A DNA stretch of 64,000 bases from positions 1-64,000 of IMG/VR virus record IMGVR_UViG_3300033058_000221; one strand, written 5' to 3'. This DNA comes from a virus. A model generated the notes under the pieces. It was given only the letters and a program-made list of their open reading frames with translations, was not told the DNA's origin and searched no databases. Both the position numbers and the translations under genes were made by a program. Below, one piece after another: positions 11,975 through 50,100 of this stretch (positions are counted from its first letter, which is position 1; every line of letters begins with the position of its first letter).

Positions 11975-11987
11975 TGGAAGCTAATAA

Positions 11988-12872: not shown

Positions 12873-12919
12873 CAAAAAAACATAACAGGCGATTCTCAGG
12901 CGAAAAGGTTAGATAGAGA

Positions 12920-13897: not shown

Positions 13898-13913
13898 GTT
13901 TCCGGTAATTGTA

Positions 13914-13935
13914 GGTGCGGTTTTCAAACCGCACC
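13914..13935 (+). promoter_or_regulatory. perfect GC-rich hairpin right after the capsid gene (ggtgcggttt/aaaccgcacc)
   Basis: 10-nt perfect inverted repeat separated by tc, effectively a 9-bp stem with a 4-nt loop. It sits 17 nt after the capsid stop and has no U-tract. Confidence 0.6.
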
Positions 13936-13954
13936 AGCTCAAAGGAGAAATGAA

Positions 13955-16026: not shown

Positions 16027-16136
16027 ATGTTTAGGTGTTTACTGTTCTATGTTTTAGCGAGAATTCCGCAGATGTGTAAAATCTGTTTCTACTGGTGTGT
16101 ACCTGCGAAACATTTATATAACACAGCCGAACAGGT

Positions 16137-31048: not shown

Positions 31049-31561
31049 GTGAATATTAACCAGATCGAACCGAAATTTAAGGAACTTGAAAAAGGCGTTG
31101 ACGGCGCAATGGAGCAGATCGGATCGATTGAAAAACGTCTTGAACAAATTGCAGCACGGCTTCAAGAACACGAAGGAGCAACCGCAGACGACGCTCACGG
31201 TGTTGAAGTTGAACCCACCGGAGACGAAGCGGAGCAGGAAGCAGAAACGCCTACCGAAATCGCAACCGAGACCGCAGAAGAAGCGGTTGGTACGACGGTT
31301 GGTCCGCTTGGCAATGTGCCTGGTGCTGCGGAAAGAATCTTTGAAACGGCAGAGGAATCCGTAGAAAAGGAGGAGTTCATAGACGAGGATGCCACCTTTC
31401 GAGTTCCCGAACAGGAACCCGAACCGGAAAAGGTGGAGCCTGTGGCGACTGTTAAAGTGGTTGTTTCGGGCGACTTAGACCCCGTCACCGCGTCGCTTCT
31501 TAAGCGTCTGGAACACATTAATACAGACGTTGTGAAAGTTACTGTTGATAAACGAGAATAA
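31049..31561 (+). CDS. acidic hypothetical protein (GTG 31049 preferred over ATG 31034)
   Basis: GGAGG lies 8 nt before GTG 31049, while ATG 31034 has no SD. The N-terminus VNINQIEPKFKELEKG parallels the N-terminus of the preceding protein. Confidence 0.45.
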   Translation: MNINQIEPKFKELEKGVDGAMEQIGSIEKRLEQIAARLQEHEGATADDAHGVEVEPTGDEAEQEAETPTEIATETAEEAVGTTVGPLGNVPGAAERIFETAEESVEKEEFIDEDATFRVPEQEPEPEKVEPVATVKVVVSGDLDPVTASLLKRLEHINTDVVKVTVDKRE

Positions 31562-31776
31562 TGGAAAGAATCAGAGTAGACGGTATCATCATCAAGGCGT
31601 ATAAGGGCACGAGGTTCGATGTGCGATCTGACGAGAATCCTAACCATATCGTCTTTTGCACGCTGTCGGGTAAAATGCGACAACGCAAATTCCGTGTCAA
31701 CCCCGGCGATGCCGTCATTATTGAAATATCACCGTATGACCTCACAAAAGGTCGTATCGTATGGAGGAAAAAATGA
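31561..31776 (+). CDS. infA: translation initiation factor IF-1 homologue, 71 aa
   Basis: Full-length S1-like OB similarity to bacterial InfA: ...SGKMRQRKFRVNPGDAVIIEISPYDLTKGRIVWR versus E. coli [34 protein letters not shown]. Confidence 0.9.
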   Translation: MERIRVDGIIIKAYKGTRFDVRSDENPNHIVFCTLSGKMRQRKFRVNPGDAVIIEISPYDLTKGRIVWRKK

Positions 31777-32504
31777 GAGATCTATGGCTGGTTATACTAC
31801 TTGCGATCCTGATCGCATTTCCAGTGTACGCGAACGAAATCGGTTTTACCATATCACAACTTCACGAAGAAATAGACTGGGGAGGCACCGCTAATTTAAG
31901 CGGCACCCTTGCAGGTCTCGACGCTGAGTTAGACATCCAGGCACAATCGGGTGATCTCATTCGCGGACGCTACCGCGGAGAAGTCGGACTCGCAAACTTC
32001 AAGGTTTTTCAGGATGGAACTTTCAAAGGCTATACCCTTGACTCGCTCGGTCGTCAATCCGATATTGGCATCAAGGGTGAAGTTGGTGTCGGGGGTCTGA
32101 ACGTTGCCGTCGGTATTTTCGGACGAAACGCAGGGGAATTCGGGCCCCCCAACGCCTACGGCACACTTCGCGACTTGGGCTACGACGAAGCCACTCTCGA
32201 AGCGATCGGTGGGCTGGATACACTCAACCCTGCACCAACGGGGCTTTCTATTCGAGGCGGTAATTCTCTGAATCTGCTACTCTCAACTGAGTTTGAAGTC
32301 GCTGATCTCGATGTGGAATTGCGAGTGCTACCCCAACTCACTGGCGAGGTCAAGGCACACCAAGCGTTGCTGCTTTTACAAACCGATTATCAGTTGACAG
32401 ATAACTTGAAACTCAACCTCGGTGCCGACATCGCGACGCAGCTTGTAGAGGATACAATCGAGTATGAAACAGCGACCGTCGCGACGGTTTCACTTGAGTT
32501 TTGA
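31773..32504 (+). CDS. secreted beta-barrel outer-membrane-like protein, 243 aa
   Basis: ATG 31773 (GGAGG RBS, ATGA overlap with infA). Signal peptide MRDLWLVILLAILIAFPVYA-NE. Alternating Gly/aromatic strands and a C-terminal ...VSLEF ending in Phe, as in OMP beta-signals. Confidence 0.55.
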   Translation: MRDLWLVILLAILIAFPVYANEIGFTISQLHEEIDWGGTANLSGTLAGLDAELDIQAQSGDLIRGRYRGEVGLANFKVFQDGTFKGYTLDSLGRQSDIGIKGEVGVGGLNVAVGIFGRNAGEFGPPNAYGTLRDLGYDEATLEAIGGLDTLNPAPTGLSIRGGNSLNLLLSTEFEVADLDVELRVLPQLTGEVKAHQALLLLQTDYQLTDNLKLNLGADIATQLVEDTIEYETATVATVSLEF

Positions 32505-32506
32505 CA

Positions 32507-32535
32507 TTGACAAAAATGGGGCAATAGTGTAAAAT
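32507..32535 (+). promoter_or_regulatory. sigma70-type promoter TTGACA-17 nt-TAAAAT
   Basis: ttgaca (32507-32512; a second ttgaca sits at 32501) and taaaat (32530-32535). It follows the OMP stop and lies about 190 nt upstream of the tRNA. Confidence 0.55.
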
Positions 32536-32724
32536 AACTTTAATAAATATATATCCAATTTAGTATATATTTATGCCCCAAATTGTGCCGGTGGGTAGGA
32601 TGAGGAATCCCGTCTGTTTCCTTGCAGACGAAAACAGCACACTCGGTTAGTTTGAAGTGCAGGTTAGGCGTGGCTTTGGCAACAACATACGATACGAGGT
32701 GTCAGTCACGCCTGCCTAAAATAC

Positions 32725-32797
32725 TGCAGGGTGGAGAAATTGGTATCTCACAAGGCTCATAACCTTGAGGTTGCTCGTTCAAGTCGAGTCCCTGCAA
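32725..32797 (+). tRNA. tRNA with anticodon CAT (elongator Met or Ile2/lysidine type; no encoded CCA)
   Basis: Hand-folded cloverleaf: acceptor tgcaggg/ccctgca, U8, D-stem gaga/tctc with loop aattggta (G18G19), anticodon stem caagg/ccttg with loop ctCATaa, variable aggtt, T-arm gctcg-ttcaagt-cgagt, discriminator A. Confidence 0.85.
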
Positions 32798-32815: not shown

Positions 32816-33190
32816 ATGGCAGCAAATCTAATTGAACCTATTGAAATCTATCGCGACGACTATATCACAGTGTTTGTTATGGACGAACAGGGGGCAGGTG
32901 GCGCACACCATGTCTACCATATCTACGATGGGACAGACCCTTCTATAGATGAACCGATCGCTGTTATTCCATTCCAAGAGGGTGTCATCCTGGAGAACGG
33001 TGTCAACGGTGTCACCAACGAGGCACTGCTTGCGATTATAGGGCATCGGTTGAACTGTTTCCAGCAGGGACCGTTCCCATCCGATTTTAATAAGGCAGCT
33101 CTCTCAGGTGTTGACTTCGCGAAGGTTGTCTTGGGGATGCGCACAAAAGACAGGCAAGCGCGCGGCGTTGAGGGGCAGGAAAAGGAATGA
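32816..33190 (+). CDS. conserved-looking phage hypothetical protein, 124 aa
   Basis: AAGGAG RBS. The motif NGVTNEALLAIIGHRLNCFQQGPF...R..RGVEG looks like a recurrent phage family that I cannot name. Confidence 0.55.
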   Translation: MAANLIEPIEIYRDDYITVFVMDEQGAGGAHHVYHIYDGTDPSIDEPIAVIPFQEGVILENGVNGVTNEALLAIIGHRLNCFQQGPFPSDFNKAALSGVDFAKVVLGMRTKDRQARGVEGQEKE

Positions 33191-33356: not shown

Positions 33357-33962
33357 ATGCCGTATTATCAGAAGTTGCCCGTCGTTATTGAAGCGGAGGG
33401 TCCTATCACGGAAGAGCAGATCATCCCGACCCTTAAAGGCGATATGAAAGCCGATGTAGGTGATTTTATTATCACCGGTGTGCAGGGTGAGCGGTATCCG
33501 TGTAAACCTGACATCTTCCATAAGACGTATCACGCCGTCGAGAACAAGGAGGGTGTCGCGTTCGTTGATGTCTGTGTGGACTTCGATGGCGTTGTTCATG
33601 AGTATTCGTCGGGCTGGCAAGGTGCAGATGTGATTCCCGATCCGCCGATCGTTGACACACTTAAGGTGCTTTATGAGTATCTTGACGCTGGGCTTACAAT
33701 CGCGATCCATTCGGCACGCTCGGCACAGCCAGGTGGCATTGAAGCGATGCGAAACTGGTTGAATAAGCATGATTTTGAATACAGAAAAGCGATGAAACCA
33801 GTACAGGAGCCACTGGCTTGGGAGATAATGTTCCCGATCTGCAAGCCTGCTGCTGGTATGTACATCGACGACCGCGGCTATCCGTATAACGGTCCTGGGA
33901 CGTTGCCGGACCCCGGGGTAATCAAATTGTTTCGTCCGTGGAATTGGAAACTGAAACCATAG
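33357..33962 (+). CDS. fusion of a small phage N-domain with a HAD-superfamily phosphatase / 5'-nucleotidase-like domain
   Basis: N-terminal KLPVVIEA...VGDFIITGVQGERYPCKPDIFHKTY. HAD motif I VDFDGVV, motif II IAIHSARS, motif III/IV CKPAAGMYIDDR. Confidence 0.6.
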   Translation: MPYYQKLPVVIEAEGPITEEQIIPTLKGDMKADVGDFIITGVQGERYPCKPDIFHKTYHAVENKEGVAFVDVCVDFDGVVHEYSSGWQGADVIPDPPIVDTLKVLYEYLDAGLTIAIHSARSAQPGGIEAMRNWLNKHDFEYRKAMKPVQEPLAWEIMFPICKPAAGMYIDDRGYPYNGPGTLPDPGVIKLFRPWNWKLKP

Positions 33963-34028
33963 GAAACCTCGCCATTTGGCGAAGGGGTAAGATGCGTCGA
34001 TTCGCTATATTTGAGAGGTGTTAGTTAA

Positions 34029-35036
34029 ATGGATATTCTCGTTTTGGACGTCGGTTGCACGCATATGAAAGCTGTTGTTGTTCGCGCACAGACAGTTATT
34101 GAAAAAATCAAAGTGAATACTCCTCAATTAGCAGAGGGTATTGTCCGTACTGCCAAGTCGTTTGTAGATCGCGTGTTTTCGCAAGGCTACGAACTGCAAG
34201 GGGTTATCCCAATTTCTTTCAGTGAGTCTATCATATCCGAAACGGATGACGGTCGCCTGCGTTTGTGGGGACCTACGTATTGGGATGACGATCTATCAGT
34301 TAGCATCATCGGTGGTGACTATGAAAAATCAGGATACCCCGATGTGTTTCCGGGTGTTTACAAATACTTGAGTTACATAGATTTTTTGAGTGAAAAGCAA
34401 GATGCACATTTCAAGCGGGTGCTTCCTGTCTCTACGATGATTGCTGCGCAACTTGTTGGGAATAGGGGTTGGAATATGTGGGATTGTACCCACGCGTCGA
34501 ATACCGGTTTGTATGGTGATGGTCAATGGTTGTCGGAGGCTTCTGAAAAGTATAGTCGATGGTTCGACACCAAACGGACAGTGACTTCATACACAGAGGT
34601 TGGAAGAATCCTACCGAATATCCCTGTTTTCGCGGGTGGGCATGACACACTCCTTGCCATGTTTCCAAAACATTATGCGTATATCAGTTGTGGCACATAT
34701 ATCATCGCGTCCCAGCCGACACAATGGATGCAAGAAGTCAAAGAAGACTATCCTGCGAAAGTGCGTTACTTGCAATCCCCGACTTATCAGTATCAACGCC
34801 AGCTGTGCATGAAAAGCAAAGGGCGTATTGATCATGATCAGATTAACGAGATTCGGCAGTTCATGACGACAGATGATGTTGTTGTGATGGGAAATTGGGC
34901 ATCCGAGATGGCTGAAGTCTTGGTAGACTATAGTTTTAATCCTGTCGTTAAAACAGACGAACAATTTATCGGGGCAGCTGCAGCTGCTCAGCAAGGTGTT
35001 TATGATAGACAAAATATTGGTTCTTTCGCTGCGTAG
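34029..35036 (+). CDS. FGGY-like (ASKHA-fold) carbohydrate kinase, short form
   Basis: ILVLDVGCTHMKAVVV (phosphate-1), WDCTHASNTGLYGDGQW (FGGY signature-like), VFAGGHDTLLAMF and ISCGTYII. Confidence 0.55.
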   Translation: MDILVLDVGCTHMKAVVVRAQTVIEKIKVNTPQLAEGIVRTAKSFVDRVFSQGYELQGVIPISFSESIISETDDGRLRLWGPTYWDDDLSVSIIGGDYEKSGYPDVFPGVYKYLSYIDFLSEKQDAHFKRVLPVSTMIAAQLVGNRGWNMWDCTHASNTGLYGDGQWLSEASEKYSRWFDTKRTVTSYTEVGRILPNIPVFAGGHDTLLAMFPKHYAYISCGTYIIASQPTQWMQEVKEDYPAKVRYLQSPTYQYQRQLCMKSKGRIDHDQINEIRQFMTTDDVVVMGNWASEMAEVLVDYSFNPVVKTDEQFIGAAAAAQQGVYDRQNIGSFAA

Positions 35037-35853
35037 GTGTTCCGAGCGTCATTATACGTGGTTGGGCGCGAGCAAGATGCGAAACATCCCTATTGAATGC
35101 GTTGAATTTGTTGAGGGGCATGATGGCAGTCTTTATGAGAGTATGGAGGACGTTGCGGACTTCGCGAAAGCTGACGGTTTTGATTTTGTAGAAGAATATG
35201 CGGTCGGCACGACCACCGAATACGTCCAACAGACAACAGCCTCTGTCTCACAAATATGGAATTTCGCGCGGATTTTTCGGCATATTGCAAACGGTGAAAA
35301 GGTGTGTATGGTATTGGCAGATGATAAGATGATCACTGTCTCCTTCAACATAATTTCGCTGATTGTTCAGGAGCTTCGTATCCAAGACGCTGAATTCTTG
35401 GCGTTTCAATTGCTGCAGCGCGGTGATATAAACGAGTTAGATTGTGAAGATAAAGGCAAATACGATATAGCAGAGTATAGTGGGCATGTCTTCGATGCTA
35501 TCTTCAAAAAGGAAATTCCGAGTTATGCCGATTTTTTTCTGAAACTTGGGTTATGCGGGTATGACGAATCGTTTGTTTTGTCACCAGAGGGTGCGAGTTG
35601 GATTCTCGATTGTCTGAACACCGCGGACGATTTCTATATTTTCTTTGACCACTTCATTCATAACAGGCTCACCAAAGATACGGTAGTCGCTATTGAGAAT
35701 GGGAAAGGCGTTTATTGTCCGAAAGAATATGGTTATACCTTTGTGGAAACAATTATGCCGATGAAAACGACTACCCATTGGGCTCCGGAAGGCACACATC
35801 ATTATGAGGAGTCTATTAAAACAACAGATGTCCCTTGGGGGGATATACCATGA
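35002..35853 (+). CDS. glycosyltransferase family 25-like protein
   Basis: N-terminal MIDKILVLSLRRCSERHYTW...VEFVEGHDG matches the GT25 (LgtB/Lic2B-type) I.VI(S/N)L..s..RR opening. Start taken at ATG 35002. Confidence 0.6.
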   Translation: MIDKILVLSLRRCSERHYTWLGASKMRNIPIECVEFVEGHDGSLYESMEDVADFAKADGFDFVEEYAVGTTTEYVQQTTASVSQIWNFARIFRHIANGEKVCMVLADDKMITVSFNIISLIVQELRIQDAEFLAFQLLQRGDINELDCEDKGKYDIAEYSGHVFDAIFKKEIPSYADFFLKLGLCGYDESFVLSPEGASWILDCLNTADDFYIFFDHFIHNRLTKDTVVAIENGKGVYCPKEYGYTFVETIMPMKTTTHWAPEGTHHYEESIKTTDVPWGDIP

Positions 35854-36317
35854 AAATTATTGGTTTTGTTTCGGGGTGCTTCGACTGGATGTCGCCCGGA
35901 CACATTAGGCTTTTCAAAGAAGCAAAGCGACACTGTAATAAGCTTCACATATTGATGGCAGATGATGTCACAGTTGGATACTATAAAGGCGTTGGACGAC
36001 CGTTGTTAACTTATGAGGAAAGATGTGAGATTTTAGAGGGTTGTATATATATTGACGAAATCCACAAGCTTCATAAAACACAGGATCTCTCAAACCAGTT
36101 TGAACTCATTAAAAAAATTAATCCGCATATCTATTTTGAGGGTGCAGACGCAACGGACAAAGAGATAGGGGAATACCTTGATAGGTTGGGAGTTTTGCGT
36201 AAAATGCTGAATACATCACAGTTGCACATTTCAGATATTCTCCGTCGCTATGATGCAGCGCGTTATGATGCATCGATCACTGACCATGCAATGCTTGCAG
36301 AAGATGCGGGGTTATAA
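35850..36317 (+). CDS. cytidylyltransferase-family nucleotidyltransferase (TagD / RfaE domain II-like)
   Basis: KIIGFVSGCFDWMSPGHIRLFKEAK matches the G-x-F-D-x-x-(H)-x-G-H signature, with Ser replacing the first His. The C-terminal TSQLHISDIL is similar to the RTxGISTT block. ATGA overlap with the upstream GT. Confidence 0.65.
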   Translation: MKIIGFVSGCFDWMSPGHIRLFKEAKRHCNKLHILMADDVTVGYYKGVGRPLLTYEERCEILEGCIYIDEIHKLHKTQDLSNQFELIKKINPHIYFEGADATDKEIGEYLDRLGVLRKMLNTSQLHISDILRRYDAARYDASITDHAMLAEDAGL

Positions 36318-36322
36318 TATAA

Positions 36323-36970
36323 ATGCAAGGAAAATGTTTACAATTTGGGTTATGTACAACCGCGGAATACATATATCTGCTTGAACCGAATTGGCGGGAA
36401 ACAGAGAAGATCGTATTACCAGTAAACAAAGTACCGCCCGAATTGCATTACATAGACAATTGGGTGTACTATGGCATAGACCACGATATTGGTACAATTT
36501 TTGGGATGGCTGAAAGATTTTCACACCACACCCATCCACATGCTCATTGGATTGCAGCAAATATGGTTGGAAAGGACCCTGGTGTTGCGCTTGTGCCATC
36601 GAGTCTCAGTCTCTACAATGAAATTATTAGGGGTATTGGACACACACTTGCGAAAAATAGTGTTGTGTTTCTACCGCAAGTTACCCTCGATTTTTTGTTG
36701 TCAAAATTATCGCTTACTGAAGTTCATATCCTTAAGATGGACATTGAAGGTGCAGAGGTCGATGTCTTTACACATTACAGTTGGCGAATAAAGCCGAAGT
36801 TCGTCGCAGTAGAGTTTCATGACATTTACCAGCCTATGGAACAAGAAGATTTTGAGCAACTGTTTTACAGGCAGGGTTACATTAAAATCTTTGAAGATTT
36901 TAATATTGTGGACAATAAACTGCATACAACCGAACTGCATTTTTGGTTAAACGGAGCTGAACATGATTGA
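36323..36970 (+). CDS. FkbM-family methyltransferase-like protein
   Basis: VHILKMDIEGAEVDVF matches the FkbM (Methyltransf_21) hallmark iDllKiDvEGaE. The N-terminal SAM-binding loop is diverged. Confidence 0.55.
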   Translation: MQGKCLQFGLCTTAEYIYLLEPNWRETEKIVLPVNKVPPELHYIDNWVYYGIDHDIGTIFGMAERFSHHTHPHAHWIAANMVGKDPGVALVPSSLSLYNEIIRGIGHTLAKNSVVFLPQVTLDFLLSKLSLTEVHILKMDIEGAEVDVFTHYSWRIKPKFVAVEFHDIYQPMEQEDFEQLFYRQGYIKIFEDFNIVDNKLHTTELHFWLNGAEHD

Positions 36971-37763
36971 TAAAGTCTATATTCTGAACATAGAGAGCGA
37001 ACAGGAAAGACGGGAAAATGCGATGGAACACTTGTCAGATATAGGTGTTCCTGTATCTAAAATTGAGATATGGGATGCCAAGACCTGTGCGCCGTATGCC
37101 AAGACTGCCGACCTTTGTGCTGCTGCGGGCGAAACGCTTCCGATTTTTCGGAATCTGCTTGCGTCTGGCAACTACAAGGAATGCTATATTACGTATCTCG
37201 CACAGGCGTGGAGTTATCTCTCGTTTTGGCAGCACTTACAACGTACTGGCGAAACAGCGATACTCATGCATGATGACGTGGATTTTCTCTGTAGTTTTGA
37301 GAACGTTTTAAAAGCCTGCGATAAACTGCCAAAAGATGTCTTTTTCGCTTTTCTCTCGTTTGCGCGGGAGGCACCGATAGACGTTTCCCAAATTGTGAGT
37401 TATGATGAGCCATGGATACGCTATGTTGATGACCGATTCCAGTGGGACGCTGTGATGTTGTTCACATCTTCTGGTAGTGATCTATTACTTTCCGAATTTA
37501 ATAAGTTGGATTGGCTCGGTGACGGCTGGTTCATGAACGGTATCTGGCGTAACGAATTTTTTGATGGTTGTGGTGGGATTTACGAGTTAGCTGTTAATCC
37601 TAACAAACTTACCCAAACGCGAGAGGCTTTAACGTCGATGGTGACAACGCCACCGCGCTATGAAACAGAATTCAGTTCTGTTACCAACAACGATTTAGCC
37701 TTTCCGACCGTCATCCGTGATTCAGACTCACGGTTACTGCGATCCAAAGAATCAACAAATTAG
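36963..37763 (+). CDS. glycosyltransferase family 25-like protein (second copy)
   Basis: MIDKVYILNIESEQERRENAMEHLSDIGVPVSKIEIWDA, the same GT25-type opening as 35002..35853. Confidence 0.6.
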   Translation: MIDKVYILNIESEQERRENAMEHLSDIGVPVSKIEIWDAKTCAPYAKTADLCAAAGETLPIFRNLLASGNYKECYITYLAQAWSYLSFWQHLQRTGETAILMHDDVDFLCSFENVLKACDKLPKDVFFAFLSFAREAPIDVSQIVSYDEPWIRYVDDRFQWDAVMLFTSSGSDLLLSEFNKLDWLGDGWFMNGIWRNEFFDGCGGIYELAVNPNKLTQTREALTSMVTTPPRYETEFSSVTNNDLAFPTVIRDSDSRLLRSKESTN

Positions 37764-37771
37764 GGGATAAA

Positions 37772-39865
37772 ATGCGATTTGTAGAATACTTGCCTATTAT
37801 TTCAGAGCAGCTTCCGGTCTGTTTGGATGGTACGGATGTCTCTGTCTCTTATTATCTGTTCAATAAAGGGGCATCAGCCGAGAACCCCAACGGCGATAAC
37901 TTCCCGATTCTCCACTACGCACATGAGGTTGCCTATGCTTACCGGCAACTTATAAACTGCACCAATATACTTGACTGCGGACGGGTGCGATTTTTCATGG
38001 CGGAGCAGGCACAAGAACAGATGATGCCCTACTTTAAGGAGATCGGTCTATCTTCGCTTGTTGTGCCTATTGAAGTGCCGGTGGGTGTGCAGTTATCGGG
38101 TTATATTCCGCATCTATCGAGTGAGCACTTGGACCCTTGTAAATATCGTTTCCATAACGACACTGATTTGTGGTGGTTGTTGCCAGAAGGTGCTGAAAAG
38201 TTTGATTGGCGAAACTTCTGTAATCTTTTAGATACGGCGAATGACGATGCTTTTTTTGGTCAACCGATAGAGAAGCCGGAATGGGTGTACCAAGTGAATT
38301 TTTCGCAACACGCATTACCGCACAACGCAAGGGAAAAGGCTGCGGAGACATTGCGCAAGATTTTCGGACCCCGTATCCCTTTGGAATTTATTGCTATGGC
38401 AACAGCAGATGCCGAGGCACTACGTGAACAGAAACGTCCGTCAAGTTTACGGTGTTTCGGTGGCTGGTTCGTTGGTATAAAGTCTCAGTCGAATGCCGAA
38501 TGGTATCTCCAAGACTTCTATGAGAAGCATAAAGAAGTCTTGAGTGATGACGAGGGTTTGTATGCGTTGCTGTTTCATCTGTTCCCTTTCCTTGAGCAGT
38601 TCCAAGTCTTACAGGGTAGCCATCCCCCGATCGAAAATCAGGTAGAACAGACATCGTTGCTAAACTTTACAAGCCTTGAAAATGCGGGTGTTATCAATGT
38701 CGGTGTCCAAGAATTCTATACCGATCAATATCGAAACGAGCGGATAGGGCTTTCGGAATTTATACTCGGTGAACCCCATGCGTTTGAAAACGTTGTAGCC
38801 GAATCCGAGCAGATCACGACGGAAGGCGCTGATTTAACGATACCGGCACATCATTTGCGTATGTTTGGCAAGCACATCATTGGGACTTATGCGTTGGACG
38901 CGAACGGGTGTGTATTCCCTTTAATAACGCATTCAGAGAACAATCACTCGGTACTCTTTGGGTTTCCGTCAGCATTTATGCCGATCAAATATCCGATTCC
39001 GTATTCTCTAACGGATACCCCTGAAGTCGTTGTTTTTTTCTGTATCTTCAGTCACCCGATGAACGCGACGCACGAGGTGCATGCGTATGCGAAATCTATG
39101 ACCTATGCGGCCAAGATGCTCGCAAAGAACACAAACATTTTTGATGTCGGCAGGGTGCTGATTTTCGTTGATGAGCGGGTAATGAACACTGTCTATCCGT
39201 ATTGCCGAGAAGCAAATCTCCAAAAATTAGTTGTACCTTTCAAATCTAACAAACAGGTGCAATACGCTGCTTATATTCCTCATTTCTACCACGAAGCGAT
39301 GGGTGATATTCCCATACGCATGTATATGGACGTAGATATGTGGTGGATCAATCTCGCCAACGATGAAAAGTTTGACTACCGGCATTTGGCAAAAGCGTTT
39401 CGTGAATGTGAGGCAGATGTGTTTGGTAATTCTGTGCCGAAAAGACCCGATTGGACGTATCAAGATTTGTATAGCCGTTCTATCTATGAGGGCGACACGC
39501 ATGTTGAGCGTGCCAAGCGATGGATGGTGGAAAACTTTGGGGCAGAAGTGCCAGATACGACGAGAAGTATTACGGGTTGCCACAACGGTATCCGGTTAGG
39601 ATTGTCGTTAGAAAAGTTAGAACGCTTCTACGAAGAGGTCGGCGAATTCATTAGGGACGACGAAGCGTTTTGGACGGTTTTTTTCGCGCGGCATCCCGAA
39701 ATTCAGATCAAGCAGATAACCGATTTGATTCGGGGCGTAAGTTTCAGAAATCAAGAAGTTAAGCTCCACGATAAAGCCGAATTATCGCACGTGGGGACTT
39801 ATATGTTTGAACATTTTTTTGGCAAACCGAATGCTAAGAAGTTTTATGAGCATTGTTCTGAATAA
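37772..39865 (+). CDS. 697-aa protein made of two homologous halves, each with a DxD-containing transferase-like core
   Basis: Half 1 (aa approx 20-200) and half 2 (aa approx 417-590) share HEV.(Y)A...NI.D.GRV..F..E.....PY..E..L..LVVP, YIPH, D(T/V)D(L/M)WW, EKFD(W/Y)R and FG...P.KP(E/D)W.YQ. Confidence 0.55.
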   Translation: MRFVEYLPIISEQLPVCLDGTDVSVSYYLFNKGASAENPNGDNFPILHYAHEVAYAYRQLINCTNILDCGRVRFFMAEQAQEQMMPYFKEIGLSSLVVPIEVPVGVQLSGYIPHLSSEHLDPCKYRFHNDTDLWWLLPEGAEKFDWRNFCNLLDTANDDAFFGQPIEKPEWVYQVNFSQHALPHNAREKAAETLRKIFGPRIPLEFIAMATADAEALREQKRPSSLRCFGGWFVGIKSQSNAEWYLQDFYEKHKEVLSDDEGLYALLFHLFPFLEQFQVLQGSHPPIENQVEQTSLLNFTSLENAGVINVGVQEFYTDQYRNERIGLSEFILGEPHAFENVVAESEQITTEGADLTIPAHHLRMFGKHIIGTYALDANGCVFPLITHSENNHSVLFGFPSAFMPIKYPIPYSLTDTPEVVVFFCIFSHPMNATHEVHAYAKSMTYAAKMLAKNTNIFDVGRVLIFVDERVMNTVYPYCREANLQKLVVPFKSNKQVQYAAYIPHFYHEAMGDIPIRMYMDVDMWWINLANDEKFDYRHLAKAFRECEADVFGNSVPKRPDWTYQDLYSRSIYEGDTHVERAKRWMVENFGAEVPDTTRSITGCHNGIRLGLSLEKLERFYEEVGEFIRDDEAFWTVFFARHPEIQIKQITDLIRGVSFRNQEVKLHDKAELSHVGTYMFEHFFGKPNAKKFYEHCSE

Positions 39866-39875
39866 GGAGTTTTAC

Positions 39876-40040
39876 ATGTCATCTTTTAAAACGACGTTGA
39901 ATCGCAAGAAGAAAGTTAAAAAACGAAAGATTTTCATAGGGTTATCAGTAGCTGTCGCCGCTGCGATGATCGGCATGCCGGACGACTCTTTTGACTTTCA
40001 TTTCACGATCTATGGTCGCCGTAGTGGCAGTGGCAGTTAA
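39876..40040 (+). CDS. small basic single-TM protein, 54 aa
   Basis: AAGGAG RBS 6 nt before ATG 39876. Sequence MSSFKTTLNRKKKVKKRKIFIGLSVAVAAAMIG... Confidence 0.4.
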   Translation: MSSFKTTLNRKKKVKKRKIFIGLSVAVAAAMIGMPDDSFDFHFTIYGRRSGSGS

Positions 40041-40082: not shown

Positions 40083-41063
40083 ATGAAACGAAAACTATTT
40101 TTGATACTCATAGCACTGTGTGTTTATCTTGCTGGTTGTGGTGATGAGGGTGTGATCCTTGACGGGCTTGTGGCTCCGACCGCACCTTCCGTAGAAGGCG
40201 TTGTTGGACCCGTGCCTGAAGAAGTTAAAAAGATGCTTTGGGGTCGGGGTTCCGATACGATGATAGCAGACTTCAAAGAGGATATAATAGAGGCTGACGC
40301 AAACGGTCGTAATATAGATATAGCAGGTGATATTCACAGTATTTGTTTCAGGCGTGATCAGGAAGCGTATTATGGGAAGTACATCTCTGCTGATGGCGTT
40401 GTGATCATGGGGCACCGGCATGTCTCTGACCGTCACTTTTATGCAGCACGCGACATCGTTTTGGGTATGACACAAAAGCATCCTGAACTTAGAGCGTTGC
40501 TTACACCGAGTCGTGAAAACCGACCTGGCGCGACGCAGCTCGACGGACAACATGATGTTACGAAACAACCTACACCGAGTCGTCTGTTCCGTTATGTTCT
40601 TGTGCATAACGATATGTCTTACGCATCGATACCTGAGTTACAGTATGTTGGCCCTGAGGTTCAGTTTAATGTTGCCCCGGGATTAGGCAGCTTTTGGCCC
40701 AGTTTCGCTTGGGGGTATGTCGGTGGCTATGAACATTCAAAAACAATATTGATATATTCGGTGTTTGCACACGAGTTTGCTCACATGATCCATCTTGCAA
40801 TTAATATCTTAGACCCGACGTTCGATGATCAGCTTAGAGCCGCGTACAAAGTTGCGAGAGAAAATCAGGCGATTACCACCACCTCGCGTGGTTGGCATGA
40901 GTACTGGGCAGAAAATGTTGAAAAATGGTTTAGGAAGACAGCGGATCCAAAACAAAAATGGTATCACGATATGGTTCTTGAGCAGGACCCGTTGCTATAT
41001 GCGTTGATGTCAGAATGGTTTGATTTGATATACCTTGCTGATGTTGAAACGAAAGACTATTAA
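40083..41063 (+). CDS. lipoprotein zinc metallopeptidase (HExxH)
   Basis: Signal plus lipobox MKRKLFLILIALCVYLAG-C. Zincin motif SVFAHEFAHMIH. 326 aa. Confidence 0.6.
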   Translation: MKRKLFLILIALCVYLAGCGDEGVILDGLVAPTAPSVEGVVGPVPEEVKKMLWGRGSDTMIADFKEDIIEADANGRNIDIAGDIHSICFRRDQEAYYGKYISADGVVIMGHRHVSDRHFYAARDIVLGMTQKHPELRALLTPSRENRPGATQLDGQHDVTKQPTPSRLFRYVLVHNDMSYASIPELQYVGPEVQFNVAPGLGSFWPSFAWGYVGGYEHSKTILIYSVFAHEFAHMIHLAINILDPTFDDQLRAAYKVARENQAITTTSRGWHEYWAENVEKWFRKTADPKQKWYHDMVLEQDPLLYALMSEWFDLIYLADVETKDY

Positions 41064-41074
41064 GAGGATTAATC

Positions 41075-41482
41075 ATGGCAGCTGAAATTTGTACAGATAG
41101 TTTTTTAATCAATATGTTGGGCAACTTGCAATGCACGTTCAGTATTGAAAACCGAACGACTGTACAAGCTGTCTATGGCACAAACACATTCTCGAAAACC
41201 TTTTTATATACGCCCGGCACATTTGTGGATACAGAACATGCGAACTACGGCTTTTTTGTTCGTTACGATCCTGCGCCGGGCGATACCGATTTCCCAGCAG
41301 GTGTGACGATTACAGGTAGTTTTGTTGATGAGGAAGGGAATCCCGCTACACCGGACCTATCAGGTAACTTGACAGAGGCGAGAAAGGCGACATTCAGGTT
41401 CACGATAACGATGGATAGAGACACATATCCTGGTGGTGAGTTCAGTGTTACTGTGACACTTGGCTTTAATCCAGGTGCCTAA
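41075..41482 (+). CDS. paralogue 1 of a small Cys-motif protein family, 135 aa
   Basis: N-terminal EICTDSFLIN....LQCTF and C-terminal VTVTLGFNPGA. See the family finding. Confidence 0.55.
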   Translation: MAAEICTDSFLINMLGNLQCTFSIENRTTVQAVYGTNTFSKTFLYTPGTFVDTEHANYGFFVRYDPAPGDTDFPAGVTITGSFVDEEGNPATPDLSGNLTEARKATFRFTITMDRDTYPGGEFSVTVTLGFNPGA

Positions 41483-41494
41483 GGAGAAACAGCT

Positions 41495-41989
41495 ATGGAA
41501 CGTGGAGTTTTTGACTTTTTTTCGTCCGACCCTGACACAATTAATAAGCACTTACAATCTGGCAAAGCCGTGTGTATGTTGCTGAACAAAGATTTACCGG
41601 GCCCATCTATCGTTCAAGGTATAAGCTATGGGTACGTGCTTGTTGTTGAATATAACGGGGAAGAGCGTCTTGCCGTCGCGCACGGGTGCTATAAGAAACC
41701 TATTAAGCGGTTTGATTTGCCTGATCCAGAAGTGTTGCGGAAATGCAAAAAGGTGCAATCGCTGACGGAAGGTATCTATCCGAAAAAGATTTTCAAAAAG
41801 CATCTTGAAGACCCACTAAGTATTCTGCTGCATACCTCACTAACAGACGAGCAGTTAGAGATGTTCAAGCGTAATTATGAAGTTTTTGGAATCGAACATG
41901 AAGATGAGATGCATAATGCAATTGCATGTGTATATTTTAATCCAAATTATGAAACAGAGGGCAAGGTTATTGCCCAGTGGTATGAATAA
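41495..41989 (+). CDS. hypothetical protein, 164 aa (interrupts the paralogue array)
   Basis: AAGGAG RBS. No family recognised. Confidence 0.5.
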   Translation: MERGVFDFFSSDPDTINKHLQSGKAVCMLLNKDLPGPSIVQGISYGYVLVVEYNGEERLAVAHGCYKKPIKRFDLPDPEVLRKCKKVQSLTEGIYPKKIFKKHLEDPLSILLHTSLTDEQLEMFKRNYEVFGIEHEDEMHNAIACVYFNPNYETEGKVIAQWYE

Positions 41990-42000
41990 GGAGCAGAAAA

Positions 42001-42438
42001 ATGCCTGTTACCAACCTTGACGATTTTGAATGCAGTGATTCGTTTATAATCAATTTTACCGGGGTAACCGAATGTACATTTGTACCAAAAGTATTTGATG
42101 ACCCCGGCGACAGTAGGGATCCAAATGTGGCTGTCAAAGCAGTTGCAGGTAGAACAACCTTCGCTAAACATTTCATTTTTACCCGAGGCTCAAATACAGC
42201 AGGTGTTTTTGATGAACATGTCGCGTGGTCGGCAACGGCTCAGGATGAGACAGTGTCCAATACGGTGAACACACCACCAACGGGTGTAACGTTCAATGGT
42301 GCCTTCAATGTAGCACCCGACTTTTCTGTGCCAGCACTGACTGTGCAGCCAGTTGTATATTCTGGTAATATTAATGTCACCAATTTTGAAGGTAAGCGGT
42401 TTACTGCCACTGTTACGGTAGGTTTTGATCCGCCATAA
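42001..42438 (+). CDS. paralogue 2, 145 aa
   Basis: FECSDSFIINFTGVTECTF ... TATVTVGFDPP. Confidence 0.55.
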   Translation: MPVTNLDDFECSDSFIINFTGVTECTFVPKVFDDPGDSRDPNVAVKAVAGRTTFAKHFIFTRGSNTAGVFDEHVAWSATAQDETVSNTVNTPPTGVTFNGAFNVAPDFSVPALTVQPVVYSGNINVTNFEGKRFTATVTVGFDPP

Positions 42439-42443
42439 AGAGA

Positions 42444-42842
42444 ATGGCTTTTCCTTTTGAATGCTCAATGTCCTTTATGATTAGCTATACTGCTGCGACG
42501 ACGTGTACAATCACGCTCGATGATGGGAGTGATATTACTGTTCGCGCGTCGCAGAATAGCATATCATTTGTGAAATTGTTTATGTACACGCTTGGACCCG
42601 AGCCGGACAGAGATTCTGAGAATTACGGGTTCGATCTTGAGATTACGGGTGATGGGGCGCGCGTTGTTGATACGCGATTCTTTTTTCAACCAACAACACC
42701 GCGCTTCGATCCAAACATACCAGAGCCGAAGAACGGACAGGTCACAATAACGATGACGATTGACAAGGCACTCGCTCGCAGTTTGGGGTTCACAGGGACG
42801 GTTACGGCGACTGTGGAAGTAAAAATGAACACAGGTACATAG
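42444..42842 (+). CDS. paralogue 3, 132 aa
   Basis: FECSMSFMISYTAATTCTI ... ENYGFDLEI (compare ANYGFFVRY in paralogue 1) ... GTVTATVEVKMNTGT. Confidence 0.55.
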   Translation: MAFPFECSMSFMISYTAATTCTITLDDGSDITVRASQNSISFVKLFMYTLGPEPDRDSENYGFDLEITGDGARVVDTRFFFQPTTPRFDPNIPEPKNGQVTITMTIDKALARSLGFTGTVTATVEVKMNTGT

Positions 42843-43181
42843 ATGGGAACTGAATGCTCAGCATCCTTTGGTGTTAATTTTATATTGAGTATCGATGCAG
42901 ACGTTACGCTAACCCGTGTATCCGTCGAGCAGCAGCCTGGGTTTGTCAGTATCTGGTATTGGAGCGTCTATTTCACGTATGTGACAGGGGATCCGCCAGC
43001 GACGGCGTTTCGTCTTAATTCTGCCGACGGTCTGACAGGTACGTTCTCTCCGCGCAAGCCGAAGAGCGGCGATAATCCGTTGGAAGTCAGAAACGGTGTT
43101 TTATTCGGCACAGTGCAGCAGGTAATACCAGAGGGGCAGAGTGCTACCTATAACGGCACAGTTACAATCATACAAGCATAG
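42843..43181 (+). CDS. paralogue 4 (most diverged), 112 aa
   Basis: MGTECSASFGVNF ... YNGTVTIIQA. It lacks the second Cys and starts directly after the previous stop. Confidence 0.5.
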   Translation: MGTECSASFGVNFILSIDADVTLTRVSVEQQPGFVSIWYWSVYFTYVTGDPPATAFRLNSADGLTGTFSPRKPKSGDNPLEVRNGVLFGTVQQVIPEGQSATYNGTVTIIQA

Positions 43182-47153: not shown

Positions 47154-50100
47154 ATGGCTACACTTAGAGAGTATCTCACCCCAGCAGAACAAGAACGGTT
47201 TCGCAAATTGCATGCCCAGGGCTACTTTGACCCGATCACGCTCAATCGGTTCACGCAGCGGATGCGTCAAGAGTTTGAATATATCGACATGCTCCAGCGG
47301 CAGTTAGATCGTGCGACATCCGACATCGGGCGCGTAAGGGGCTCAACAGCACAGGATGTCGAAACCCGTTCAAGGCTTCAATACACGATTGACTACACGA
47401 AAGATCGGATACCGAGGCTTCGTGCAGGTGCCTTTGATTCTGCGTTGTCTGGCGACTTAAGCGGTCGGACGCGTCGGGCGATCCAAGACTTTGAGCGTGC
47501 AACACATGTACGTGAAGACGGTCAGTTAACATCCGCTGGCGATGCGTTTGCGGCGATTCCGTGGATTGGGGACTCTGCCGAAAAGAACTTAATGGCACGG
47601 GATTTGGAGAACCAGATACGTGAGCAGGGTATTGTAGATTACACAATCAACCTCGCTGGAAGTATGATCACAAGTCCTATCCGCGGTGCACACCAACTCA
47701 CGACAGGCGGTTTGGGTGAGAACCCGCTTGAAGCGATCGCAGAGATCGGCTCTGTGCTTCCGATCGGACGTGCTTTTGGGCGGTTCGCGCGTCCTGGCAG
47801 TCTTACCTCAAAAGCCGTGAGAAGCCCGTTATGGACGGTGCCCTCCTACACCGCACAGGTTTCGGATATCGTCGGTGCCGGCGAAGGTGCTTATAGCGAA
47901 CTGTTGGCAGAAGGTGCGATAGAGGCGATCGGTAGCGGTAGGGATTTAGTCCGGCATATCAGACAGCGACGCGCCTTCCCGGGTGTAGACCCCCAGCAAG
48001 AGATAGAAAGCCGTCAAGCCACCGAATCCACCACTGAACACGACAGGACGACAGGTTCACGCACTGCACCGGGAACACAAGGGCTATCGCCTGAAACGGC
48101 GCGTGCCGTAGAGCGTGCGCGTGCCGATTCGGCAGTGGAATCTGCTGAAGCGCAAGCTGCGTTAGATGCTGCCAAAGAAGAGCGTCGGACATCCATGGAC
48201 CAAGAACTGCGCAGGGCTGCTTGGGAACGGATGCTCATCGAGGCGGAGGAACGCGAAGCCGCCGAGGCGGAGCAAGCTGCTCGCGAGCAACGGTTTATCG
48301 ACCAAGACGATGCGTACACAGCGCAACAGCAGGCGGAAGCAGAAGCTGCCGCGGAACAACAGACTGCCGAAGCAGACCGCATCGAACACACCAAGAACTG
48401 GTTGCCCTTCTATTCGGATATGGCAGGCGGTTCACAGTCGGAAGGCATCCGCTTACTCAACCAAGAATACGAGGCTGGGGTCCGTGACCCCATAGCACAC
48501 CGCTATGACCAGATCGCATCGGGGTTAAGGGAACAGATGGGTGCTGCGCCATCAGAACTACACCGTGAAGCAGATAAACGTCTGCGGCAGCAGATCGGCG
48601 AGAAGTGGTATAACATCCACCGCGGCATAGACCAGCGACCGACACCCCAGGAACGTGCAGCGCGTGCTGAAGAAGCTGCCGAAAAGATTGTGGAGGGCAC
48701 AGATGAAGGAACAGACGGAGATACCGATACCGGAACCACTGCTACAGGCACTCAACAAACGGATAGAGAGACACAACAGGGAAGTGGCGAGGCGCAACCC
48801 GACGAAACCGATGTCGATAATGTACCCGCAACGGATATTCCTGACCCACGTGACAGTGTACCACCATCCCGGATCGGAACTGAAAACAGAGGCTACGAAT
48901 CCGACGGCACCACCGGACACAACGTCCGACCCGTCCTCCGAGAGTTAGACGATCTCGTACCCTCGCACCAGTTAGACGGCGAGGCACGCGAAGACTACCC
49001 GCAAGACTTGCAACCGAGAGGAGGGCGTGGTGGTGCGATCTCGATGGAACAGGTACGCAACACCGCCCGGAATCCGAACTTCGCTTTCCTCTTAGAGTTT
49101 TTCAAACAGTTTCGCGACGGCGCACCCGTGACGAGTAAGAAACACCCCCGGCGCGTCGTATCTGGTAACGGTCGCACGTTGGCACTGCAATTCATGCAGC
49201 AGAACTACCCGGAGAACTGGGAGGCATACCAAGCCGCGCTCCGTGAGGAACTCGCACGTGTCGGGATCGACCCTGCGGAAGCGGATGCGATGGAAGCACC
49301 CGTACTGACGTATGAGTTGATGGACGACATTGACGAGGTAGCACTCGCGAAAGATGCCAACACACAGGCAACCCTGGACCACACCGCCGCTGAACAAGCC
49401 GGTCAAGATGCGCAATACTTCGATAACGATTTGATGGCGTTATGGGAACCGGGTGAAGGAAGTTTTGAAGAGGTCTTGAAAAGCGAAGGAAACCAAGCAT
49501 TCCGGACAGCACTTTTCAGGCGTATCCCGACGCAATTGGTATCGGCGTTTATGACGGCGGATAACCGAAACTTCTCCGACGACGGTATCAAACGGATTCA
49601 GAATGCAATGATCCGATACGTGTTCGGTGAAGACATCGGTGACCAGCTGGCAAACGTTTTGATTGAACAGGGGCTGGAAGATGTCAAGAATGTTGAGACG
49701 ATGCTCCGGCATGCGATCGCATCACTCGCTTATGCGAAAGCAAACGGGCAGGATATTTCTACGCAGTTAGCATCGGCTATTTTTAGGTTCATTGAATTCA
49801 ATAAAACCGCCGAACGCGAGGCACGCGAACGCAAGCAGCCCAAAGATGTGATGCTCTATGCCAGCATTGAGGCGTTCTATAAGTCCGGCACACTCATCGA
49901 CGCACCCACACTGCTTGAAAAACAGTTGCTTTATCTTGTCTATGCCAAGCGGAACGCGCCGCGGCAACTCGCAGACGATTTCCAAGTGTGGGCACAAAAC
50001 GTTGTCGCCAGGGGACAGGCAGATGCAGCGAGTCTCTTTGACACAGCGATTTCAGAGGCGATCTTCGCAGGGATGATACGCGACTATATCCGTGAGACGA

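Follow-up and report, generated by a model that had tools for sequence, protein, structure and literature searches.

A putative mobile phage cassette for sugar activation, methylation and transfer

Can a bacteriophage make its own activated sugar and transfer it, and if so, onto which acceptor? This question is raised by a block of seven genes, here g1 to g7, at positions 33357 to 40040 of a 64,000-nucleotide stretch (the window) of the virus record IMGVR_UViG_3300033058_000221. In an original prediction, made from the letters of this stretch, the block was described as an island of consecutive, translationally coupled genes for a phosphatase, a kinase, a nucleotidyltransferase (NT), an FkbM methyltransferase, two GT25-like glycosyltransferases (GTs) and a double-domain transferase. 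The source phage is uncultured and has a genome of ~70 kb (ENA contig, 70,250 bp), whose gene content includes a P22-type portal, an SU10-type adaptor, an integrase, ParB and a 4275-amino-acid (aa) polyvalent protein. In the window, the block follows the lysozyme region and precedes a series of beta-sandwich paralogues, a tail-lysin-like protein and the gene for the 4275-aa protein. The general idea that the phage carries a set of enzymes for sugar activation, methylation and transfer has held up, and after profile and structure searches most of the family labels stand, while membership of GT25 does not. The seven genes, with the evidence on which each assignment rests, are as follows.

33357..33962, + strand: g1, 201 aa, PGDYG-like domain plus HAD-like phosphatase domain (PHROG matches, motifs)
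34029..35036, + strand: g2, 335 aa, shortened FGGY-fold (ASKHA) carbohydrate kinase (predicted structure, Foldseek, motifs)
35002..35853, + strand: g3 (GTa), 283 aa, putative GT-A glycosyltransferase, distantly GT25-like (homology to GTb)
35850..36317, + strand: g4, 155 aa, cytidylyltransferase-like (HIGH-type) NT (Pfam PF01467)
36323..36970, + strand: g5, 215 aa, FkbM-type S-adenosylmethionine (SAM)-dependent methyltransferase (Pfam Methyltransf_21)
36963..37763, + strand: g6 (GTb), 266 aa, GTa paralogue, putative GT-A glycosyltransferase (weak GT25 similarity)
37772..39865, + strand: g7, 697 aa, tandem GT-A glycosyltransferase (predicted structure, Foldseek, DxD motifs)

The conserved unit and its distribution

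All seven predicted open reading frames (ORFs) are present on the + strand, and the motifs quoted for them were located in g1 to g7 at the expected sites, including DFDGVV (aa 75-80) and YIDDR (aa 169-173) in g1 and the pair HNDTDLWW and YMDVDMWW in g7. On comparative grounds these are real genes and chance ORFs are ruled out, because the kinase, GTa, the NT, GTb and the tandem GT recur in related loci at 23-68% amino-acid identity although the flanking genes differ. The coupling ascribed to all seven applies to g2 to g7, where neighbouring genes overlap or are spaced by no more than 10 nucleotides (nt) except at the g2/g3 junction, which is an overlap of 35 nt; g3 and g4 share a common ATGA, and the remaining junctions from g3 to g7 are gaps or overlaps of 5-10 nt. 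It does not extend to g1, which is separated from g2 by 66 nt that include a hairpin. The impression that the island is AT-rich was confirmed by computation, the core (34029-39865) having a GC content of 0.442 as against 0.498 in the remaining window, with the window minimum over 6.5 kb in the stretch beginning at 35501, while g1 has a backbone-like GC of 0.508. At the other end, the coordinate 40040 first given for the island takes in a 54-aa ORF beyond g7.

The block was compared with nine related loci from seven lineages. The kinase, the NT and GTa are present in all nine loci and all seven lineages, whereas GTb and the tandem GT occur in eight loci, being missing from the variant locus L013 only, and the methyltransferase is found in six of the seven lineages, with L005 substituting a Methyltransf_24-like protein for FkbM. 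GTa (41-61% identity in the nine loci) and the NT (28-68%) are the two best-conserved proteins across loci. Gene order within the cassette is variable, the kinase being the last gene in L001, and the flanking genes are mostly unrelated, with few common between loci. The carriers range from contigs of ~43-72 kb, several of which have a P22-type portal or an SU10-type adaptor, up to circular contigs of ~245 kb, one of the relatives having been found in a marine sponge metagenome. These comparisons confine the conserved unit to g2 to g7 and leave g1 out of it, and the GC dip together with the co-occurrence of its genes across loci with mostly unrelated flanks shows these six genes to be a mobile cassette on which selection acts as a whole. 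The phosphatase that had been counted as part of the island does not belong to this unit, as g1's HAD-like domain is found in the window and L001 only (two of seven lineages), its GC is that of the backbone and it is not coupled to g2. An integral role for g1 in the pathway was rejected on distribution, GC and spacing, and g1 is treated here as an accessory neighbour outside the conserved cassette.

The cassette appears to be restricted to phages. A scan of 185,579 GTDB genome representatives with a g7 profile returned no relative, and protein-level searches found no homologue of the kinase, GTa or the tandem GT in any isolated phage. A search of JGI metagenome contigs with GTa and g7 profiles gave no confirmed relative either; the pattern-based method used for the GTDB and JGI scans may miss some, one known relative being itself a JGI contig. 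At the DNA level, the sole match between the island and 50,697 phage records is 100 nt long and lies in the N-terminal domain of g1. The island had been called unusual, and it is indeed so, because its kinase, GTa and tandem GT are found in no isolated phage, and g7 in none of the cellular genomes searched. That a phage should activate and transfer its own sugar is a known concept; no account of this combination of genes, of three of the protein families in it or of its mobile occurrence confined to phages was found in the literature searched.

Two forms of the cassette differ from that in the window. In L009, L010, L011 and L014 (ENA contigs, two of them circular and ~245 kb long), it is expanded, with FkbM and GTb-like genes present in two copies each and with additional small ORFs, and it adjoins a GH108 lysin and multiple ~1030-aa proteins with leucine-rich repeats (LRR), cohesin and dockerin domains, with collagen-like fibre genes downstream. 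The L013 variant (10001-16626) comprises two GTa-like genes, a single 336-aa DxD protein, FkbM, the kinase, a 259-aa protein and an NT that is fused to a ~160-aa N-terminal domain, and its neighbours are helix-turn-helix (HTH) regulators, a PAPS-reductase-like gene and an MT-A70 methyltransferase, not virion genes.

Predicted activities of the cassette proteins

The label of FGGY-like kinase for g2 fails by sequence and is borne out by fold. Against FGGY_N, g2 scores 12.6 bits where the cut-off is 28.8 (E = 0.1), and a search of the PDB with the single sequence gave no match; a profile of the g2 family gave marginal PDB matches only, which include N-acetylmannosamine kinases, rhamnulokinase and an FGGY kinase, and 11 of 39 family members match FGGY_N (best 5e-8). 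The AlphaFold2 model of g2 (pLDDT 92, pTM 0.92), on the other hand, has FGGY kinases as all 50 of the 50 matches listed by Foldseek against the PDB, with query TM-scores of 0.62-0.77 and a best E of 1e-15, among them xylulo-, rhamnulo-, fuculo-, glycerol and gluconate kinases and LsrK. The target TM-score is just 0.45-0.56, and therefore about one third of the FGGY structure is absent from g2, which at 335 aa is without the full-length C-terminal domain of FGGY proteins (~470-530 aa). The motifs LDVGCTHMK (containing the phosphate-1 motif, DVGCTHMK), DCTHASNTGLY and GGHDT (with the catalytic Asp) are present in g2, and across the 39-sequence family D7, G9, K14 and D206 are nearly invariant and G203/G204 invariant; the family is small, with 47 representatives among 1.84 billion proteins. 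The predicted fold is strong evidence that g2 is a shortened FGGY-fold kinase. FGGY kinases, such as those for glycerol, xylulose, ribulose, rhamnulose and fuculose, usually phosphorylate a terminal, non-anomeric hydroxyl, and a glycosyl-1-phosphate would therefore be no obvious product of g2.

The assignment of g4 as a cytidylyl- or adenylyltransferase was confirmed by PF01467 (CTP_transf_like), at 48.7 bits against a cut-off of 21 (E = 1.1e-12). Among NCBIfam models, g4 is closest to rfaE_dom_II (HldE domain II, TIGR02199; 1.2e-17), followed by TagD (TIGR01518; 7.5e-6), and its top PDB sequence match is the ethanolamine-phosphate cytidylyltransferase 3elb (1.9e-9). Both equivalog cut-offs are missed by a wide interval (64.1 versus 181.5 bits for HldE domain II; 26.1 versus 165.4 bits for TagD), and therefore no substrate can be assigned to g4. 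The signature is a variant, GCFDW(M/L)(S/T)PGH, which reads GCFDWMSPGH in the window; at the HxGH site the cassette NTs have (S/T)PGH, or TPAH in L005, while the NTs of the L013 variant and of the cyanomyovirus P-SSM2 have canonical HxGH. Phosphopantetheine adenylyltransferase (PPAT) is likewise without the first His of HxGH, and most HIGH-type NTs (TagD, ECT, CCT, PPAT) use non-anomeric phosphates. The bacterial ADP-heptose pathway (GmhA, HldE, GmhB) offers a partial parallel: the closeness of the NT to HldE domain II and the logic of kinase, phosphatase and NT are shared, whereas the cassette has no GmhA isomerase, its kinase is FGGY and not PfkB, its NT stays well under the HldE score and a phosphatase is usually absent.

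GTa and GTb are paralogues by profile comparison (hhalign probability 99.4%, E = 5e-22). The two GT25-like openings from which they had been recognised are real: that of g3 follows MIDK..(L/V)L....R (MIDKIL in the window) and is accompanied by an invariant DDK at aa 107-109, and g6 opens with MIDKVYILN...ERR and has HDD at aa 103-105. Membership of GT25 fails for both. Against Pfam GT25 (PF01755), g6 scores 17 bits, under the cut-off of 24 (E = 0.0055), and 3 of 12 GTb family members match, all sub-threshold (best 3.5e-4), as against none of the 19 GTa members. The best PDB profile match of GTb, the Mimivirus R655 glycosyltransferase, is marginal (E = 0.013) and covers both motifs. GTa has no match in Pfam, in the PDB by sequence or profile, or in isolated phages, and its homologues form 19 clusters among 5.8 billion proteins, all metagenomic. 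With CAZy GT25 enzymes (LgtB/Lic2A, COLGALT1, Mimivirus R655) these proteins share an x-I-x-V-I-N-L-x-x-x-x-x-R-R opening and a DD-containing strand, and they differ in the scores just given and in C-terminal halves that are unrelated in sequence. GTb therefore bears a weak likeness to GT25 without belonging to the family.

The 697-aa protein g7 had been seen as two DxD-containing halves, and these are 28% identical to each other (E = 2e-30), pointing to an internal duplication. The N-terminal half (aa 1-336, DxD at 130-132) and the C-terminal half (aa 370-697, DxD at 520-522) are joined by a disordered linker (aa 337-369), which is of low confidence in an AlphaFold2 model with a pLDDT of 86. 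The notion of a double-domain transferase can be refined to that of a tandem GT-A protein whose structural neighbours, missed at first reading, are bifunctional glycan polymerases, the top Foldseek PDB matches being LARGE1, LH3, CHSY3-CHPF, K4CP, COLGALT1 and PmHS2. Taken singly, the domains have GT31, GT6 and GT8 enzymes as neighbours, and in the viral structure library BFVD the protein matches multidomain GTs from giant viruses and uncultured phages. Across 17 g7 sequences D132, D520 and D522 are invariant, while D130 is replaced by N in 2 of the 17; homologues form 19 clusters in the 5.8 billion proteins. No match was found in the PDB by sequence or profile, hhalign found no relation between g7 and GTa, and the comparison of g7 with the single 336-aa DxD protein of L013 gave a hhalign probability of 13%, which is weak and unreliable. 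LARGE1, the Escherichia coli K4CP chondroitin polymerase, Pasteurella PmHS2 and CHSY3-CHPF resemble g7 in carrying two GT-A domains per chain, each with a DxD, and differ from it in that sequence identity is 8-10% and whole-chain TM-scores are 0.16-0.25, which are low because the domain arrangement differs. On the predicted structure, g7 is best read as a tandem GT-A enzyme, and it may be bifunctional or polymerising.

For g5, the FkbM label was supported by Methyltransf_21 (PF05050; 36.5 bits versus 22.7, E = 6.9e-9), in an alignment that spans only positions 97-170 of the 173 in the profile, its C-terminal half; the TIGR01444 score of 29.2 bits is below the cut-off of 37.7. The protein has G-I/V-D at aa 51-53 and KMDIEGAE at aa 138-145, and in its family G51, D53, D140, G143 and E145 are invariant, the last three belonging to the hallmark D-(I/V)-E-G-x-E. 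The invariant G-x-D at aa 51-53 could be SAM-binding motif I. All products of g1 to g7 are soluble, with a peak 19-residue hydrophobicity below 1.5 and no transmembrane segment.

Proposed pathway and candidate acceptors

From the folds and families, the conservation of catalytic motifs, the co-inheritance, the mobility and the solubility described above, which are observed, we infer an order of steps, a donor, polymerisation and an acceptor as follows. The kinase g2 would phosphorylate a small sugar, ketose or polyol drawn from the metabolism of the host, and g4 would join the resulting phosphate ester to a nucleotide, giving an ADP- or CDP-activated donor that the host does not supply. GTa, the constant partner of the kinase and NT, might place this special residue on the acceptor, after which GTb and the two GT-A domains of g7 would lengthen the chain with ordinary host nucleotide sugars; in the manner of its structural neighbours LARGE1, K4CP and PmHS2, g7 might add an alternating disaccharide. 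The methyltransferase g5 would O-methylate the glycan and perhaps cap it, and the HAD phosphatase of g1 would be an optional helper in some lineages. On this reading g2 to g7 would be self-contained, assembling the glycan with soluble enzymes of the cytoplasm alone. The earlier view that the pathway is complete is not upheld, as no isomerase or mutase was detected.

Several phage systems are comparable in part. In RB69 and DLP3, a phage-made nucleotide sugar, UDP-arabinofuranose, is likewise produced by a kinase, a HAD phosphatase and an NT and is transferred several times, although there the kinase is of APH type and fused to a MurU-like NT, an arabinose-5-phosphate isomerase and GT-B transferases take part, and a ThyA-homologue 5hodCMP synthase, undetected in the window phage, is needed (PMC13326640). 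Another example is the 'LPS' (lipopolysaccharide) cluster of P-SSM2 (PSSM2_309-313), which is also phage-borne. It encodes a carbohydrate kinase, a small HAD-like protein and a CTP_transf_like NT with 27% identity to g4, lies between tail-fibre-like genes and has a function that is likewise predicted only (PMC1079782). It differs in having a PfkB kinase rather than FGGY, a cupin-type isomerase and an epimerase, in having no homologues of GTa, GTb, the tandem GT or FkbM, and in that its HAD protein is fixed, whereas that of the window cassette is optional. The cluster O mycobacteriophages have three tandem GT genes and an O-methyltransferase whose products act in the cytoplasm on proteins of the virion, namely those of the capsid and the tail tube (PMC11600133, citing Freeman 2023). 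Their hosts are actinobacteria, and that account mentions neither a donor-making kinase or NT nor a tandem GT-A protein.

Which acceptor, then, is served by the cassette? The original prediction had named virion proteins, host LPS and phage DNA, of which the first two are retained and the third is disfavoured. Our leading candidate, held tentatively and at somewhat under even chances, is a phage virion protein that would be glycosylated in the cytoplasm before or during assembly. It is favoured because the cassette has no exporter and because of its setting among lysis, fibre-like and internal-virion genes: no exporter, flippase, ABC transporter or polyprenol-phosphate primer was detected among the window cassette genes and their immediate neighbours, and in most loci the cassette is co-directional with genes of these three kinds. 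In the jumbo-sized contigs it stands between LRR-cohesin-dockerin proteins and collagen-like fibre proteins, and its absence from the searched cellular genomes was also counted on this side, as were the cluster O mycobacteriophages, which set a precedent. A number of points weigh against a virion acceptor. No acceptor was identified in this analysis, and GTa is 41-71% identical across phages with unrelated virion genes, as would be expected of an acceptor common to all of them (lipid A-core, a lipid carrier or DNA) more than of capsid or fibre proteins that diverge. The L013 cassette adjoins HTH regulators and DNA methyltransferase genes and is divergent from the structural genes, so that a structural-module context is not universal. 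A strong candidate promoter of sigma-70 type and an Acb2/Tad1-related gene, both upstream of the cassette, could mean early or lysogenic expression, and the integrase makes lysogenic conversion possible. GT-A enzymes normally use nucleotide sugars linked through a glycosyl-1-phosphate, whereas FGGY kinases yield non-anomeric phosphates, and the donor chemistry does not obviously close.

Several of these points speak at the same time for the host envelope, which we rate as the main rival, less probable than a virion protein. Here lipid A-core, that is lipooligosaccharide (LOS) or LPS, or another glycolipid would be modified on the cytoplasmic side and exported by the host MsbA/Lpt machinery, leading to a receptor change. 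The strong conservation of GTa among unrelated phages suits a conserved host acceptor, and the non-structural setting of the L013 variant, the sigma-70-like promoter ahead of the unit and the presence of integrase and ParB in the phage agree with it; nor would a dedicated exporter be missed, since LOS core enzymes do not need one. The sole family-level similarity of GTb is to GT25, to which LOS/LPS core transferases belong, the closest model to the NT is HldE domain II, which belongs to the ADP-heptose route, and the host is probably Gram-negative, as suggested by an outer-membrane-protein (OMP)-like product ending in Phe and a lipoprotein gene nearby. Homologues of the NT and of the small HAD protein occur in the P-SSM2 cluster that its authors proposed as LPS genes (PMC1079782). 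On the other side, GT25 membership fails, and conversion genes usually come from host pools, while g7 has no homologue in the 185,579 cellular genomes and all its clusters are metagenomic or viral. The cassette also shares its orientation with late and virion genes, among which it is closely packed, no clear terminator follows it, and it occurs in ~245 kb circular contigs, in which lysogenic conversion would be less likely. If the envelope is modified, the outcome could be superinfection exclusion or serotype conversion, in lysogens or during infection.

Phage DNA is an improbable acceptor. It has been reported that phage GT-A enzymes add mono- to trisaccharides, including heptose, to 5-hydroxymethylcytosine (5hmC) (10.1101/2023.12.21.572611), and in RB69 and DLP3, which have DNA arabinosyltransferases, UDP-arabinofuranose is made by kinase, HAD and NT logic (PMC13326640). 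In this alternative, the GT-A enzymes of the cassette would put a methylated oligosaccharide on 5hmC, 5-hydroxymethyluracil (5hmU) or 5-hydroxycytosine (5hoC) as a protection against restriction. DNA would be an acceptor common to all carriers, which would explain the conservation of GTa, and possible anti-defence neighbours are present in the relative of an Acb2/Tad1-annotated gene and the giant polyvalent ParB-helicase protein. However, no ThyA-, 5mYOX/TET-JBP dioxygenase- or C5 cytosine methyltransferase-like gene was detected by Pfam in the parts of the ~70 kb genome covered (all but window positions of ~22-27.5 kb among them), and the related loci are likewise without ThyA, 5mYOX and C5-methyltransferase within 10 kb of the cassette. 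No dCTPase, deoxynucleoside monophosphate (dNMP) kinase or DNA polymerase was seen either, and known DNA-glycosylation clusters sit with such genes, a ThyA homologue or the pair of a C5-methyltransferase and a 5mYOX dioxygenase being needed and encoded close by (PMC13326640; 10.1101/2023.12.21.572611). Many genes are unannotated, and the absence of base-modifying enzymes is therefore not proven. Taken together, we would place the largest share of belief in a virion protein, a smaller one in the host envelope and very little in DNA, with the remainder going to other acceptors.

A further alternative is about the chemistry of the donor and is compatible with any of these targets. The donor might be a CDP- or ADP-linked polyol or ketose phosphate, similar to CDP-glycerol or CDP-ribitol, from which phosphodiester substituents or a teichoic-acid- or capsule-like polymer would be made in place of a conventional O-glycan; we consider this rather unlikely. 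In its favour, FGGY kinases phosphorylate terminal hydroxyls and most HIGH-type NTs use such phosphates, and it agrees with the FGGY fold of g2, the TagD match of the NT (7.5e-6) and its top PDB sequence match, an ethanolamine-phosphate cytidylyltransferase; HAD phosphatases that take off the phosphate after transfer are also known in capsule polymerases. Against it stands that no phosphotransferase of the TagF, LicD or Stealth type was detected, that the four transferase domains all resemble GT-A sugar transferases with DxD or DD motifs, and that the best score of the NT is to the heptose-1-phosphate adenylyltransferase model.

Phage-encoded glycosylation has so far been found in few systems, namely glucosylated or arabinosylated DNA, mycobacteriophage capsids and serotype conversion, and to these the cassette would add a mobile, phage-restricted module with apparent donor synthesis of its own, four transferase domains and a methyltransferase. 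No Pfam model is reached by this phage's short FGGY-fold kinase, GTa/GTb or tandem GT proteins, and these families have no characterised member, while the pair of kinase and NT may define a new activated sugar or polyol. The value of the cassette hinges on the identity of donor and acceptor. If the acceptor is a virion protein, there would be a bearing on phage stability, receptor binding and immune recognition, and the cassette could be a portable tool for phage glyco-engineering; if it is host LPS or phage DNA, a new route of conversion or of anti-restriction would be at hand. A more ambitious proposal, which we regard as speculative, is that the pathway is phage-exclusive, in that an activated sugar or polyol that the host lacks is used by a LARGE1-like g7 to coat virions or DNA with a methyl-capped repeating heteropolysaccharide. 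If so, the cassette would be a portable 'glycan shield' module that hops between unrelated phages with genomes from ~45 kb to ~245 kb.

Neighbouring genes and accessory features

The label of HAD phosphatase for g1 rests on PHROG (phrog_1238, 1e-13) and four motifs, and no Pfam or NCBIfam model matches this part. The HAD-like domain (aa ~69-180) carries, besides the DFDGVV and YIDDR motifs located above, HSARS (118-122) and KP (163-164), and over all motifs it aligns with P-SSM2_311, which is annotated as 'phosphoheptose isomerase' (E = 0.006). It is preceded by a PGDYG-like domain (aa 1-67, window 33357-33557, ~64 aa; phrog_419, 8e-22), for which Pfam PGDYG scores below cut-off and which has stand-alone small-protein homologues, 52-63% identical, in hundreds of Streptococcus, Staphylococcus, Bacillus and Mycobacterium phages.

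Two further features lie at the borders of the block.

32507..32535, + strand: sigma-70-like promoter candidate TTGACA-17-TAAAAT (top score, 11/12, in 29-47.5 kb)
39876..40040, + strand: small basic 54-aa ORF immediately 3' of g7 (position; membership in the cassette uncertain)

The promoter candidate is near-consensus and lies in an intergenic gap of ~220 bp whose 5' end is AT-rich. Next, within 32507-32797, comes the sole tRNA gene of the window, tRNA-Met (CAT), and beyond it lie a 124-aa gene, a zinc-ribbon ORF of 53 aa and the cassette, whose transcription unit may start at this promoter; as the total of promoter-like sites equals chance expectation, the site is no more than a lead. The 54-aa ORF has a peak hydrophobicity of 1.54, which is borderline. 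Small basic ORFs also follow the last cassette gene in L001, L003, L004 and L009/L010, with a loose K/R-rich ... (I/V)(F/Y)(I/V)GL pattern, and L005 has a small ORF at the equivalent place that is without this pattern; BLAST detects no similarity among these post-cassette ORFs of the different loci.

Directly beyond this ORF, 40083-41063 encodes a 326-aa predicted lipoprotein with the lipobox LAGC and the zinc-metalloprotease motif HEFAH, which lies inside the low-GC tract of the cassette and has a homologue (26% identical) ~3 kb downstream of the L005 cassette. It is followed at 41075-43181 by four tandem paralogues (135, 145, 132 and 112 aa), the series being split by a 164-aa gene, which have an N-terminal EC(S/T)xSFxIN and a weak match to the LtfC beta-sandwich. 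Proteins of 404-435 aa directly 3' of the cassette in L003, L004 and L005 start with a similar Cys...Phe motif. The paralogues, whose similarity is at the level of motifs, could be fibre or decoration proteins, or acceptors of the glycan, and the small basic ORF was likewise considered as a candidate acceptor.

The 4275-aa protein (47154-59981) has ddrB-ParB, ResIII, AAA_34/Helicase_C_4 (SNF2-like) and RadC domains and is a polyvalent anti-defence protein, presumably injected. The alternative of an N4-like virion RNA polymerase was rejected, as the ddrB-ParB, AAA_34, Helicase_C_4 and RadC domains are those of a polyvalent protein. Its relative in L003 is 4878 aa long, with an additional methyltransferase domain. 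PADLOC gave no match to a defence system. Upstream of the cassette, 32816-33190 encodes a 124-aa protein that has no Pfam match itself and is 33% identical (E = 7e-16) to an L005 product bearing Pfam Acb2_Tad1_hairpin, that of an anti-CBASS/Thoeris sponge. Further upstream lie the genes for a 71-aa protein (31561-31776) with an eIF-1a/IF1-type fold, which is thus phage-encoded, and for the OMP-like product mentioned above (31761-32504), which has 247 aa, carries a signal peptide, ends in Phe and resembles an outer-membrane beta-barrel.

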